Below, one piece after another: positions 6,892-58,248 of a stretch of DNA of 64,000 nucleotides; position 1 is the first letter of the stretch, and each line of letters opens with the position of its first letter. Location: contig CAVSWO010000002.1 of the NCBI GenBank assembly GCA_963731735.1, positions 529 to 64,528 on the forward strand, in the 5' to 3' direction. A program made the position numbers and the translations under genes. The notes under the pieces were generated by a model that worked only from the letters and a program-made list of their open reading frames with translations, was not told the DNA's origin and searched no databases. The DNA is from Candidatus Kerfeldbacteria bacterium. Its GTDB lineage: Bacteria > Patescibacteriota > Patescibacteriia > SBBC01 > CAIJZX01.

Positions 6892-8043
6892 TTACAAGCC
6901 TCCCAGCTGGACGGTCACCGACCGGGTTTGTCCGTCTCGAAGGACGGTCAAAGTCAGGCTGTCACCCGGATGGTGTGCCAGCAACCAACTGAACGGATCG
7001 CCCGTCGGCGTTTGGCCGTCAACTTGGGTAATCACATCGCCGGCTTGGATAGCAGCCCCGGCCGCCGGGCTGCCATCAGTCACGGCCGGACTCGCGTCTG
7101 TGCCGCCGACTAACCAACCACTGGCGGTTGGATCACCGTCGACAATCGCTAACTGCCGGTCAAGCGTCCGGAGTCCGAGTTGCGGGCGCTCAATCACATG
7201 CTGTTGGAGCAGGGGTTTCAAAACTGGATCAATCACCGCCGTCGGCCAAACGCGTTGATCATCTCCAAGTAACCCAACCACTTGCCCGCTCCGATCAATC
7301 ACCGGCGATCCGACCGGCCAGGCCACTGTGGTCGCCAGTTGGTACCACCAATTCAGCTGATCGCTGGATTGCCAGGTATCCTGGTCCAGGCCGACGATCC
7401 GAGCCGGCAGCAACCTGGGTTGCCGAGGCTGGGATTGGATCACCCAAACATTCGGATCGGCCACCGCGGCTCTGGGGGTCAGCACTTTGGCCGAGGTCGT
7501 ACTCGAGGAAGCAATATTGAAAAAACGAAACGGCGTGCCGAGATCATCAACCGTAGTTTGCACCACCTGCGGTTGACCGGTCGGCGGGACAATCACCAGC
7601 GGAGTATCGGCCGGCAAATCACGCTTGAGTCCGACGTACCAGCCGTTACTGCTCAGCGGGACGACGCTCAGTAAGCCATCGCCGGCCGTGTATACGCTGC
7701 CGGCTTCTTTGGCAACCGCCAGCATACCAATCTGATCGGCAAAACCGCGCACCGTTGACGGAGCGGTCACCGGAGCGGCACTGCTATTGCGGATAACGGT
7801 GGTGGTCGTGCCGGCTGGCCACCAATTCGCCAGCCAGGAATCCGGGTAGCGTTGAATGATCGCGCCCAGCGCCACCAAGATCATCCCGCTGGTTACCAAA
7901 CCGATGGCCACCACCAAGAGCACGAACCTGCCCCAGGGCGTTCGCGGCGGCCGCACAAACGGCTGATCAGACCAGACCTGTTTCAGCTGTTGATCGGTCT
8001 TGAGTCGTTCTTTGGGAGCGGTCGGAGCGGGTTTGACTACCAT
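6892..8043 (-). CDS. Membrane-anchored HtrA/DegP-like trypsin-fold protein with a C-terminal PDZ domain; the catalytic motif may be degenerate.
   Basis: Single N-terminal TM, a GSPVIDRSGQVVGLL region resembling GNSGGP...GxVVGI, and a C-terminal AIQAGDVITQVDG...LTLTVLRDG PDZ-like segment. Confidence 0.5.
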   Translation of the reverse strand: MVVKPAPTAPKERLKTDQQLKQVWSDQPFVRPPRTPWGRFVLLVVAIGLVTSGMILVALGAIIQRYPDSWLANWWPAGTTTTVIRNSSAAPVTAPSTVRGFADQIGMLAVAKEAGSVYTAGDGLLSVVPLSSNGWYVGLKRDLPADTPLVIVPPTGQPQVVQTTVDDLGTPFRFFNIASSSTTSAKVLTPRAAVADPNVWVIQSQPRQPRLLPARIVGLDQDTWQSSDQLNWWYQLATTVAWPVGSPVIDRSGQVVGLLGDDQRVWPTAVIDPVLKPLLQQHVIERPQLGLRTLDRQLAIVDGDPTASGWLVGGTDASPAVTDGSPAAGAAIQAGDVITQVDGQTPTGDPFSWLLAHHPGDSLTLTVLRDGQTRSVTVQLGGL

Positions 8044-22821: not shown

Positions 22822-22850
22822 TTGACCCGAAGGAAACTTTTCCCTATACT
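22822..22850 (+). promoter_or_regulatory. Promoter TTGACC-N17-TATACT for tRNA-Gln.
   Basis: TTGACCcgaaggaaacttttcccTATACT, 11 nt upstream of the tRNA 5' end. Confidence 0.7.
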
Positions 22851-22861
22851 CGTTCCGTCCT

Positions 22862-22935
22862 TCCGGGATCGTCTAATGGTAGGACGCCAGGTTCTGGCCC
22901 TGGTAATTGGGGTTCGAATCCCTGTCCCGGAGCCA
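22862..22935 (+). tRNA. tRNA-Gln (anticodon CUG), with an encoded CCA.
   Basis: Manual cloverleaf: acceptor TCCGGGA/TCCCGGA, anticodon stem CCAGG/CCTGG with loop TTCTGGC, T-loop GGGGTTCGAATCCC, 3' GCCA. Confidence 0.85.
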
Positions 22936-23100
22936 TAGCGAAAGCGGCCGTCCGAGTGACGGACGTCTTCGCAATCGGGAGTCGGCAGGGATTCGAACGG
23001 GCAGAAGCGACCGAGCAAAGCTCGGGAGCGTCGATGAGCCGCCAGTGGCGGGTCGGCGCTGCCCAGGACAACGAGCCCCGCGAAAGCGGGGTGAGGCGGA

Positions 23101-23119
23101 AATCCCTGTCCCGGAGCCA
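23101..23119 (+). repeat. 19-nt perfect direct repeat of the tRNA-Gln 3' end (AATCCCTGTCCCGGAGCCA), 165 nt downstream of the tRNA.
   Basis: Read directly. The intervening 22936-23100 is GC-rich with hairpins and an inverted GGATTCGAAC motif. Confidence 0.9.
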
Positions 23120-56377: not shown

Positions 56378-56502
56378 AGCTGTGGATAGTATAGCAAATT
56401 CTCTGACAGTTGGTAATCCGGCGCCCTTGACTTCGGGCAGGTCTGTGATAACCTCCAGTCCGCCATTCCGCCGTTCATTTGACCTTTTCAGGGAGGAATT
56501 CG

Positions 56503-57120
56503 ATGGTTACCTCACCGGCTGTACCCGCCTATCCAGCGATTGGACGTCAGGAGTTCATGGAGTATTTGGAAAGCTTTTTCAGCCCCCGCCAGATGATCAA
56601 GGTCCGGGCGGCCTACGAATTTTCCAAAGCTGGCCACAAGGGTCAGCAGCGGGATGATGGAACTCGGTACTTCGAACACCTAAAGGCAGTCACCTGGATC
56701 GTCATTCATGAGCTCGGTTTCGTGCACCTGGCCACCACCATCACGGCCCTGCTCCACGACATCGTCGAGGATCAACATATCCTAACGCCCGAAAGCATCG
56801 AAATGTTTTTCGGGCTCGAAGCGGCGGTCAACGTCAACCTGTTGACCAAGCATGACGGCGATTCGACCGCCGAGTATCTGTCTCGCATGAAGCGTTCCGG
56901 TCGCTGGCGCGTGATGGTTGTCAAATTGGCCGATCGGCTGCAAAACCTTCGCTCACTCAACGCCTGCAAACCGAGCAAACGCGCTCGGACTATACAGGAA
57001 ACAATTGAACTTTATGGTCCGTTGGCCGAACACCTAACGGACATTGCGCCGCGCAAGTATCGACCGCTGGCGCTAAGTATCCAGCGACTTCTCGAGGATG
57101 AACTCGAGCAACTCCGTTAA
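56503..57120 (+). CDS. HD-domain phosphohydrolase (SpoT/RelA-type HD, small alarmone hydrolase-like).
   Basis: H...HD motif (LLHDIVED) with Rel/Spo HD-domain spacing. SD GGAGGAATTCGATG. Confidence 0.65.
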   Translation: MVTSPAVPAYPAIGRQEFMEYLESFFSPRQMIKVRAAYEFSKAGHKGQQRDDGTRYFEHLKAVTWIVIHELGFVHLATTITALLHDIVEDQHILTPESIEMFFGLEAAVNVNLLTKHDGDSTAEYLSRMKRSGRWRVMVVKLADRLQNLRSLNACKPSKRARTIQETIELYGPLAEHLTDIAPRKYRPLALSIQRLLEDELEQLR

Positions 57121-57158: not shown

Positions 57159-57211
57159 GTACTCCACTCCGGACGATCTTCGAACTTGGTATCTGACGAA
57201 AACGGAGTATT

Positions 57212-57979
57212 TCAGGCTGCCAGATCTTTACCAGGGCCATTCATCTTAAGGTGCTTGGAGTTTGCTTCCTTTACTTCCCTGTCGTACTTATCACACAACT
57301 CCTCGAATTCTCGAAAGTGGCCATTGTCTTTTCTTAGGGCTTGCAGCGTAAGTGTACTATTCGGGTATTGATCTTTAACAGTGTTGGAAACCAGTGACCT
57401 GAGAAGTGATCCTCCAAGAAACAGACTACGCTCTGGCTCCGGTAGCAATATCATTGAGTTAAAGAAAACAGCATCTACAACTGCCAGTTCCACTCCTAAG
57501 TTAACGGTTCGTGGGTTTGAATGGGCGTCACCAGATCCATACCTTAGGTGGTGCAAGTATTTTCCACTATTATCGCCAAACCAGTGGGCAACCCCGGTGA
57601 TTTCAGGTTCTCCAAAAACCGAATTATATTGTTGTGCCTCGACTAAAAGCTTCTGAATATTATAGCCAAACTCGTTCTTTGCTTCTGTAAATGCAGTTTC
57701 GGACTTACGTTTCACAGTAATAAAAAATTTCAATGATTTTTCCAGTACTTCGATCATCATTTTGTACATTGTGGGAGCTGTGGCATTGGGCTCTGTGTAA
57801 GCAAGAAGCCTTAGTGCAATATAATCTGAATCACACTGCATCCTAAGCGGCGCTGCAAATCCAAACCAGTTCTCTTCGTGTGGCTGCTGTTTTATACTTC
57901 TTGTCATGTAATCAATGCGGCCGTCTTGTTTGAACTCAGCCCTGACCAAGAGAATCAAGTTATAATCGACTAATGTCAT
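57212..57979 (-). CDS. AT-rich (~42% GC) hypothetical protein with an Rx6H (HEPN-like) motif; a candidate horizontally acquired gene.
   Basis: 255 aa; start taken at the internal MTLVDYNLILLV; motif HHLRYGSGDAHSNPRT. Sits beside tRNA-Glu and the 3'-end repeat. Confidence 0.4.
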   Translation of the reverse strand: MTLVDYNLILLVRAEFKQDGRIDYMTRSIKQQPHEENWFGFAAPLRMQCDSDYIALRLLAYTEPNATAPTMYKMMIEVLEKSLKFFITVKRKSETAFTEAKNEFGYNIQKLLVEAQQYNSVFGEPEITGVAHWFGDNSGKYLHHLRYGSGDAHSNPRTVNLGVELAVVDAVFFNSMILLPEPERSLFLGGSLLRSLVSNTVKDQYPNSTLTLQALRKDNGHFREFEELCDKYDREVKEANSKHLKMNGPGKDLAA

Positions 57980-57997
57980 TATGTGTAGGTATTGGTA

Positions 57998-58017
57998 CCG
58001 CCAAGGGGATTCCTTCT
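57998..58017 (-). repeat. 20-nt perfect direct repeat of the tRNA-Glu 3' end (GAATCCCCTTGGCGGTACCA in tRNA orientation), 153 nt downstream of the tRNA.
   Basis: Read directly: plus-strand TGGTACCGCCAAGGGGATTC occurs at 57998 and at 58171. Confidence 0.9.
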
Positions 58018-58170
58018 CCTCCACGACTCGCGACCCGACGGGTTCCCGCTCGTCGCTCCCCCGAAGCCGGGGTTCCTCTCCGAGTGCCACCGGCACTCGT
58101 TTCGGATACCCTTCGAATCCAGGTCTCAATCGCCAGGATGCCCGACCGCGAGGGTCGGCCACTCTGGCGA

Positions 58171-58248
58171 TGGTACCGCCAAGGGGATTCGAACCCCTGT
58201 TACCAGGATGAGAACCTGGCGTCCTAGACCGGACTAGACGATGGCGGC
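58171..58248 (-). tRNA. tRNA-Glu (anticodon CUC), with an encoded CCA.
   Basis: Minus strand GCCGCCATCGTCTAGTCCGGTCTAGGACGCCAGGTTCTCATCCTGGTAACAGGGGTTCGAATCCCCTTGGCGGTACCA; anticodon loop TTCTCAT. Confidence 0.85.

Follow-up and report, generated by a model that had tools for sequence, protein, structure and literature searches.

What does it mean that a tRNA gene is followed, on its own strand, by an exact second copy of its 3' end, and that the same arrangement recurs at a second tRNA gene? The question arises in a stretch of 64,000 nucleotides (nt) from a Candidatus Kerfeldbacteria bacterium (contig CAVSWO010000002.1), the whole of which we call the window, where one short noncoding unit stands after tRNA-Glu(CUC) and another after tRNA-Gln(CUG). 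The window's GAPDH shares 76 to 79% identity with proteins that bear the name Candidatus Kerfeldbacteria, which places the host within the candidate phyla radiation. An earlier note made from the letters of this DNA had read the tRNA-Glu locus as the edge of an integrated island or defense islet. Our analysis leads us to consider it probable that both loci carry a divergent relative of the RtT element of Escherichia coli (Rfam family RF00391), that is, a tRNA-attached unit that is closed by a stem (P1), processed from the tRNA transcript, and inserted duplicatively.

The units after tRNA-Glu and tRNA-Gln

The tRNA-Glu gene itself is as the earlier note had placed it, with ARAGORN and Rfam in agreement on 58248-58171 of the minus strand. 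Its last 20 nt (GAATCCCCTTGGCGGTACCA) have exactly one further exact copy in the window, and shuffled sequences gave 0 matches in 100 shuffles when as many as 3 mismatches were allowed. The copy that had been noticed is therefore real and beyond chance, but it lies at 58012-57993 and not at 58017-57998, and the spacer between it and the tRNA measures 158 nt (58170-58013) rather than 153 nt. A third copy was not found anywhere in the 64 kb within 3 mismatches, including the region beyond an AT-rich open reading frame (ORF) on the far side of the repeat. The unit begins at 58170, abutting the tRNA end at 58171, and the locus has the following parts:

58171-58248, minus strand: tRNA-Glu(CUC) with its CCA encoded (ARAGORN; Rfam tRNA, 60.8 bits)
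58190-58171, minus strand: repeat copy 1, the T-loop-to-CCA segment of tRNA-Glu (repeat search)
58130-58170, minus strand: segment b, a bulged 16-bp hairpin directly after tRNA-Glu, with no U-tract (fold; alignment A1)
58112-58120, minus strand: X, GGATTCGAA, the T-loop and the first two bases of the T-stem in reverse complement (covaries with the T-loop)
58013-58111, minus strand: the core, GC-rich hairpins (folds)
58099-58081, minus strand: core hairpin CGAGUGCC-GGU-GGCACUCG, of the CC-RGU-GG triloop type that recurs across the family
about 58056-58030, minus strand: core hairpin GCGAC..GUCGC (folds)
57993-58012, minus strand: repeat copy 2, an exact 20-nt copy of tRNA-Glu from T-loop position G57 to CCA (repeat search)

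X begins 51 nt into the spacer, where an inverted T-loop-like sequence had been noted at about 50 nt, and provides the 5' strand of P1, which has 6 bp in this unit; the first 6 nt of copy 2 provide the 3' strand, and the remainder of copy 2 is a tRNA-like 3' tail. Two other structures pointed out at the outset fared less well, as the supposed C(UUCG)G-type hairpin is merely a 4-bp stem around GGCUUCG that falls outside the family fold, and the degenerate T-arm before the copy is present in the letters but not conserved in the family. Neither a terminator-like nor a promoter-like site was found in segment b.

The second locus, for which the same layout had been claimed, indeed has it, with a 165-nt spacer and a 19-nt copy:

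22822-22850, plus strand: promoter-like site of tRNA-Gln (promoter-like-site scan)
22862-22935, plus strand: tRNA-Gln(CUG), second host of the element type (ARAGORN)
22936-23119, plus strand: second element, after tRNA-Gln (repeat search; fold; alignment)
22938-22972, plus strand: segment b hairpin (fold)
22989-22997, plus strand: X (repeat search and fold)
23101-23119, plus strand: repeat copy 2, 19 of 19 nt of the tRNA-Gln 3' end (repeat search)

In the minimum-free-energy fold of this unit, P1 consists of CAGGGAUU/AAUCCCUG extended by CGGGA/UCCCG (8 + 5 bp), P2 is GGGCAG/CUGCCC, and further hairpins carry AAA, AGU, and GAAA loops. Our covariance model R1 scores it at 89.7 bits (22986-23109), the sequence being itself part of the R1 seed alignment. 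No promoter-like or terminator-like site lies between tRNA-Gln and the unit. Alignment of the two spacers, the check that had been proposed, brought out a common plan: the segment b hairpins have the same bulged shape written in different, compensating letters (alignment A1), GGATTCGAA stands about 50 nt into both, and both contain a CC-RGU-GG hairpin. Both spacers also fold better than their shuffles (z = -3.1 and -3.7). Each locus holds a single copy of the unit, and Rfam families other than tRNA were not found in the window.

A family of units matched to their host tRNAs

The two loci are members of a far larger set. We scanned genomes, a single one for each species, for a T-arm that has GGATTCGAA and, further on, AATCC behind it, and obtained at least 120 loci, among them at least 77 units with X and a repeat that starts in the T-loop, beside at least 15 tRNA types; their hosts are Saccharibacteria and other groups of the candidate phyla radiation (CPR), Collinsella (Actinobacteria), Clostridia, Spirochaetes, Desulfuromonadales, and Gammaproteobacteria. 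A metagenome scan used a pattern with no tRNA in it, made up of nothing but X and the P2 stem as found in the Gln-type core, and gave 67 matches at 65 loci, about 45 of the 67 with a tRNA 40 to 87 nt upstream. Most of the other matches come after a tRNA 3' end that escaped ARAGORN or after another unit, or are too close to a contig end to be judged, and two fall inside coding sequence and look like chance. More than 100 units were found in all.

Their common anatomy is that of a noncoding unit of about 150 nt on the 3' side of a tRNA gene and on its strand, in which the tRNA is followed by segment b (outside CPR usually a U-tract terminator), X, a core of two to four GC-rich hairpins that often includes a long one with the CC-RGU-GG triloop, and finally copy 2, a direct copy of the tRNA from C56/G57 onwards to CCA. 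The inverted copy mostly comprises T-loop and T-stem only, and in a few loci (L106, L143, L045, and L105) it extends through the acceptor to CCA. An origin as a retrovirus-like primer-binding site was rejected, as the inverted copy reaches CCA in those few units only.

X changes with the T-loop in tRNAs with variant T-loops, which we found by searching the fetched loci for tRNA 3'-end repeats and without requiring X. Where the T-loop reads TTCAAGT, X reads ACTTGAA in 7 of 7 cases, all from one lineage (Collinsella tRNA-Leu); TTCGATT is answered by AATCGAA at both of two independent loci, and TTCAAAT by ATTTGAA. X pairs with the start of copy 2 and so closes the core with P1, which leaves the acceptor 3' strand and NCCA as a tRNA-like tail. 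In an alignment of 36 units from the metagenome scan (A5), the predicted structure pairs 95.5% of cells, against 33 to 46% when the partner is slid, and 53 double-sided changes were counted, against 14.6 +/- 6 in shuffles (0/500 reaching the observed value); at two pairs of P2b, CG/UA and GC/AU are about evenly split.

The tRNA-sense strand is more stable than its complement in 56 of 67 nonredundant units (p = 5e-9), and its loops in these 67 units are purine-rich triloops, with GNA dominant (GAA 22, GCA 6, GGA 4, and GTA 4) and RGU next to it (AGU 10 and GGU 7). The tRNA part of copy 2 has 2 mismatches in 416 positions, compared with 243 in 936 for the duplicated trailers, a comparison that is biased because detection required a 12-nt exact match.

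Some loci depart from the common plan. At L143 (3335-3560, minus strand), the tRNA-Asp 3' end, a terminator, and the inverted copy form a near-perfect palindrome of about 90 bp, the inverted copy matching the tRNA through CCA (25 nt) while copy 2 has decayed to 8 nt, so that the inverted copy could here pair with the tRNA itself and not with copy 2. At L159, L179, and L182, each unit is preceded, at a distance of about 60 nt, by a tRNA-Gln-like 3' end whose T region is odd (GGTTCCAACTTCGTCCCA...) and which ARAGORN did not call; copy 2 has the normal AAATCCC start there and differs from that end. One truncated unit without P3 and copy 2, found after tRNA-Lys at L147, L150, L169, and L174, has the X sequence ATTTGAA though the T-loop is TTCGAAT; it resembles a dead copy which has either spread or been sampled repeatedly. 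A different type of tRNA-end repeat, without the layout of X and core, lies 119 nt downstream of tRNA-Thr(GGT) at L030 (minus strand) and combines GGTTCAATTCCGCGCATGGGCTCA, a pseudo T-arm, with CATCGGCTCCAG, in which 14 nt of the acceptor end are copied. Throughout the set the repeat starts nearly always directly after GGTT (G52 G53 T54 T55; 58194-58191 on the minus strand in the window), and GGTT followed by the 20-nt match reads like a 5' protospacer- or transposon-adjacent motif (PAM/TAM), for which no protein partner was seen.

Insertion, transcription, and probable kinship with RtT

As DNA, the unit behaves as a duplicative insertion bounded by two tRNA 3'-end copies. Three relatives share the gene order scpA-scpB-tpiA-gap-small ORF ... 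tRNA-Glu; in one of them (L121) a unit follows the tRNA and copy 2 is followed by ATTGGGAAATGAGCGAAAATCGG..., in the second (L122) there is no unit and tRNA-Glu stands directly before the same flank, and in the third (L123) the site is also empty. At Collinsella tRNA-Leu, one locus is filled (L025) and another lacks the unit (L090). The L025 unit is flanked by a perfect 64/64-nt duplication that extends from the T-loop over the native trailer and on to the end of the terminator, and since the duplicated segment is native, it fits a target duplication and not an attP arm. Trailer and terminator are likewise duplicated in 35 of 82 loci, with graded divergence. On its right side the repeat may stop as early as 4 nt inside the acceptor or continue for more than 200 nt beyond the tRNA, and a casposon-like fixed target duplication was rejected on account of this variation. 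Units occur in tandem (L089, L138, and L158) or inside tRNA operons (L153 and L032), truncated or decayed copies are found (L012, L101, L147, and L143), and within one genome, cores at different tRNAs are alike, with X rematched to each T-loop. We also looked for a conserved neighbor protein, such as a transposase, a reverse transcriptase, or TnpB, but ORF clustering from -3 to +4 kb gave Collinsella synteny only, and no protein family was common to the unit neighborhoods across phyla. Around the tRNA-Glu genes of the relatives, we further noticed that a called 91-aa GIY-YIG gene of L121 (6746-7021) ends inside the 5' part of the tRNA (6997-7074) and that L123 has a GAF gene in the slot upstream, so both sides of tRNA-Glu vary among Kerfeldbacteria.

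As RNA, the unit is probably cotranscribed with its tRNA and released by tRNA processing, a view that we take by analogy with rtT RNA of E. coli. Transcription would start at the tRNA promoter and carry the unit along in the tRNA transcript, where it would form a spacer at the 3' end or in the interior, tRNA-processing enzymes would then cut it out as a stable structured RNA, and the 3' end of the released RNA may be matured like that of a tRNA. Two loci bear directly on this: at L153 the unit begins 13 nt after tRNA-Arg and its copy 2 ends 1 nt before the next tRNA, and at L032 it lies inside a tRNA cluster, so these units must be part of the operon transcript. The idea of an independent small RNA gene with its own promoter was dropped, since a few loci have a -10-like box 6 to 8 nt before X but 64 loci together show no positional signal.

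The known element that this recalls is RtT. Its repeats in tyrT-tyrV of E. coli are said to have been described by Egan and Landy in 1978, by Rossi and others in 1981, and by Bosl and Kersten in 1991, and in the tyrT locus a 178-bp unit occurs 3.14 times over, with the final 19 nt of tRNA-Tyr closing every repeat. Inspection of E. coli K-12 (1286000-1287800) confirmed this layout as tandem 178-bp units at tyrT/tyrV, with rttR and tpr annotated there and four RF00391 hits of 133 to 137 bits, one of them between tyrT and tyrV. The K-12 units have the closing stem GGGGAAGGAU/AUCCUUCCCC, which is also in the Rfam consensus, and the tail CCACCACCA, and their tRNA 3'-end copy is AATCCTTCCCCCACCACCA. 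RtT RNAs are released from the transcripts of tyrT and other tRNA operons during processing and may modulate the stringent response (PMC4986893), and this is the only published hint of a function, for E. coli; rttR corresponds to a single repeat unit of the tyrT operon (PMC3318445), and the mode of action of RtT is unknown (10.1101/2024.07.17.603846). A full-text literature search for a cross-phylum description of such elements yielded nothing beyond the RtT papers.

Some units of our family are recognized as RtT by the Rfam model, whose gathering score is 45 bits: gammaproteobacterial units from the genome scan reach 61.4 bits (L073) and twice 54 bits (L129). Others of these gammaproteobacterial units (L078, L043, and L002) have RF00391 scores of 26 to 28 bits, and 18 nonproteobacterial loci had no match to it or to another known Rfam family. 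From the other side, R1, a model of the CPR type, matches L121 and L030 at 37 to 38 bits, and its full-length hits on units of other phyla are weak (E 0.02 to 0.3). The two window units lie 3' of a tRNA on the same strand, contain the tRNA 3'-end copy, and have a closing stem with an acceptor-CCA tail, and they do not reach the Rfam gathering threshold; with RtT anatomy and without the score, they are filed here as a divergent RtT variant.

A number of observations weigh against this assignment or against an RNA as the selected product. RF00391 matches neither window unit even at E <= 10, and R1 reaches neither E. coli RtT nor the Glu unit, so that no direct link between covariance models was obtained and the proposed homology rests on shared anatomy and intermediates. 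In the Glu unit, P1 has only 6 bp and the forced family fold lies 5.2 kcal/mol above the minimum-free-energy fold, for which reason this unit may be a decaying copy. In many phyla, a U-tract terminator stands between the tRNA and X, so that transcription there would need read-through, and an anchored survey of 64 nonredundant loci gave no consistent -10 box upstream of X. G-U pairs are about equally frequent on the opposite strand (108 against 95). Finally, GNA triloops are also typical of stable hairpins of single-stranded DNA, and when closed by C-G they form ultrastable DNA mini-hairpins, so a role as single-stranded DNA is conceivable.

If the units are nonetheless relatives of RtT, an element on which E. 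coli papers date back to 1978 and which Rfam lists as a proteobacterial family, with its function and origin unexplained, then the family is far wider than the Rfam model sees, taking in CPR, Actinobacteria, Clostridia, Spirochaetes, and Desulfuromonadales, and it obeys simple rules: always after a tRNA, always with a stem cut from the T-loop, always with a tRNA-like end. This would give comparative leverage on the RtT question, also in cultivable organisms such as Collinsella. For annotation, short tRNA 3'-end repeats 150 to 200 bp downstream of a tRNA should not be read as att (attachment) sites of islands. We offer only as speculation, to which we give rather little credence, the wider idea that RtT is one branch of a cross-phylum superfamily, CPR included, of tRNA-attached RNAs whose stem and tail are retemplated on the host tRNA. 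For such a superfamily one would have to assume copying in which the tRNA or its gene is read, with target-primed, template-switching, or RNA-guided insertion at the T-loop as candidates, and a conserved function of the mimic of the tRNA 3' end, which might be to serve enzymes or toxins acting on the acceptor end as a decoy or to sense them.

Competing explanations and comparison with known systems

Among the alternatives, one in which the unit is purely a DNA element fares best, although we regard it as unlikely. The unit would then be selfish and nonautonomous, similar to a miniature inverted-repeat transposable element (MITE) or to a palindrome-associated element of the IS200/IS605 type, and would target the GGTTC of T-loops as single-stranded DNA, with the hairpins serving DNA recognition and any RNA being a by-product. 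This would account for the presence/absence differences, the tandem copies, and the spread to different tRNAs within genomes, for the truncated and decayed copies, and for hairpin-rich ends in which GNA triloops dominate, as well as for the usual position of a terminator between tRNA and unit and the lack of a promoter signal. Yet across phyla, the 8-kb flanks of the units revealed no associated transposase or HUH gene, and IS200/IS605 elements are not known to make a target duplication. Units inside tRNA operons, moreover, must be transcribed, the strand asymmetry favors the transcribed strand, and the tRNA part of copy 2 stays identical while trailers diverge (in the 12-nt-seed-biased comparison above). 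In E. coli, rtT RNA has been detected as a stable RNA (PMC4986893, PMC3318445).

We consider very improbable the explanation closest to the earlier note, in which an integrative island or defense islet entered the tRNA-Glu gene by way of a tyrosine integrase, with the 20-nt copy as its far att site and the spacer as its edge or remnant. The extent of the repeat, from T-loop to CCA, is that of T-loop-class att sites in tRNA genes, which were reportedly described by Williams in 2002, and relatives show filled and empty sites. In addition, a foreign gene with a HEPN fold lies 13 to 85 nt beyond copy 2, in a slot after tRNA-Glu that is variable. At the end of a provirus contig (L127, IMGVR_UViG_3300018495_003362, minus strand), copy 2 is even followed by tandem 26-nt repeats (CCCCGACGGGTCACTAAGCGAAGCTT), each holding a partial tRNA 3' end, as if an integrating element had reused the site. 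Against this, the window repeats enclose 158 nt without a gene, the foreign ORF lies outside them, and beyond that ORF there is no third copy. At tRNA-Gln the same architecture occurs without an island, between housekeeping genes (dnaX and a deoxyhypusine-synthase-like gene), and remnants of two independent deletions would not share one conserved, covarying fold. The duplication at Collinsella tRNA-Leu, as shown above, is of native trailer and terminator over 64/64 nt. No gene is common to the neighborhoods of the loci, and no integrase was found in Pfam scans of four Glu-locus ORFs (the HEPN-fold ORF, HD_4, a membrane protein, and a 73-aa ORF) and four Gln-locus ORFs (the deoxyhypusine-synthase-like gene, dnaX, a NUDIX gene, and one without a Pfam hit), the rest of the window being unscanned; the next gene at the Glu locus was labeled glycosyltransferase from precomputed Pfam hits on its homologues in relatives. 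The two repeats bound the noncoding unit only, and not the AT-rich gene.

The foreign gene remains of interest in its own right:

57212-57979, minus strand: AT-rich ORF of 255 aa, with a likely start at 57907 that gives 231 aa (ORF call; homologues; fold search)

The later start is probable because the homologues begin there. The compositional contrast described in the earlier note was confirmed, with a GC content of 0.43 and a GC content at third codon positions (GC3) of 0.43 compared with a GC3 of 0.65 to 0.68 in neighboring genes, and the gene is not conserved at this position in relatives: together with the HD_4 gene (56479-57120) it is absent from the syntenic slot in L121, L122, and L123, where the flanking 73-aa and 183-aa genes are conserved. 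Sequence searches of Pfam, PADLOC, PHROGs, and PDB were all negative for it, and the best member of its family reaches E = 0.19 with Pfam HEPN, which is not a hit. The HEPN four-helix fold was found by fold search alone; the closest known systems are sacsin HEPN (3o10), TT1696 (1ufb), and HEPN toxins. The HEPN call is upheld in this sense, but the Rx6H motif on which it had been based (RYGSGDAH) is not conserved, since the H is absent in homologues; R122 is conserved without an H after it, and the family has no conserved Rx4-6H. Unlike the HEPN toxins, the ORF also has no adjoining MNT partner gene. Two close homologues were found among 5.8 billion proteins and 39 clusters of the family among 1.8 billion representatives, with the motifs EVxEKSLK, GHNxEKLR, and RYGS, the window copy having Y for the family H (GYN where the family has GHN). 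The ORF is a foreign, rare HEPN-fold gene in a variable slot, a neighbor and not part of the element. Convergent with it on the plus strand is the HD_4 (RelA/SpoT-type HD) gene, of native codon usage (GC3 0.645) and a curious neighbor given that the literature hints at a link of RtT to the stringent response. At 57160-57195 on the minus strand, past the stop codon of the AT-rich ORF but ahead of the terminator that is shared, lies AGTTCGAAGATCGTCCGGAGTGGAGTACCAAAG, with a T-loop-like start (GTTCGAA) and an end like that of tRNA-Glu (GTACCA), which may be a decayed tRNA-end or RtT fragment or may be due to chance.

Least credible of all is a guide-RNA-like gene with X and core as scaffold and the 16 to 21 nt of copy 2 as a 3' guide, after the manner of TnpB omega-RNAs or Cas12k homing CRISPR RNAs (crRNAs), which would direct a protein encoded elsewhere to tRNA genes: in those RNAs too the scaffold comes first and is followed at the 3' side by a stretch that equals a DNA target, nearly all units have a match that starts at C56/G57 directly after GGTT, and the guide-like part is conserved beyond the needs of P1, but no TnpB, Cas12, or TniQ gene lies near any unit, the 65 nonchance metagenome matches sit beside tRNAs or other units and not at insertion sequence ends, the repeat often extends into trailer and terminator as a guide would not need, and the restored tRNA would itself be a target.

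How, then, do the units compare with what is known? With att sites they share the direct repeat from T-loop to tRNA 3' end, the intact tRNA, and the existence of empty and filled alleles; they differ in the lack of an integrase among the neighbors scanned and of any cargo, in repeats that lie 150 to 190 bp apart and enclose a conserved fold, and in the frequent duplication of the native terminator. Like MITEs, repetitive extragenic palindromic (REP) sequences, and bacterial interspersed mosaic elements (BIMEs), they are short, noncoding, hairpin forming, present in multiple copies, and variably present, but the ends of those elements are fixed, whereas the paired ends of our units are rematched to each host tRNA and lie strictly on its 3' side. 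The 3'ETS-leuZ of E. coli, a small RNA derived from a spacer of a tRNA operon, illustrates that tRNA processing can set free a noncoding part of a tRNA transcript that is stable and has a function; spacers of that type, however, are not known to be mobile, to have a tRNA-derived closing stem, or to end in a copy of the tRNA 3' end.

RtT is the closest parallel. The window units and E. coli RtT both stand directly 3' of a tRNA gene on the same strand and end in a tRNA 3'-end copy that includes CCA, with a tRNA-like tail; in both, the closing stem is an inverted copy paired with the direct copy (GGGGAAGGAU/AUCCUUCCCC in E. coli), and G/A-rich sequence with short GC hairpins and GNA triloops makes up the interior. 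Duplicated trailers, tandem arrays, and copies between tRNAs are seen in E. coli and elsewhere in the family, the window holding single copies, and gammaproteobacterial units in which X is GGATTCGAA score as RtT. The differences are that the inverted copy of the window units spans the whole T-loop (GGATTCGAA), while that of E. coli covers mainly T-stem and acceptor, that the core is another one (P2 is GGGCAG/CUGCCC in the Gln unit), that the window units have no tpr-like ORF, and that they belong to a CPR bacterium and follow tRNA-Glu and tRNA-Gln, where RtT follows tRNA-Tyr.

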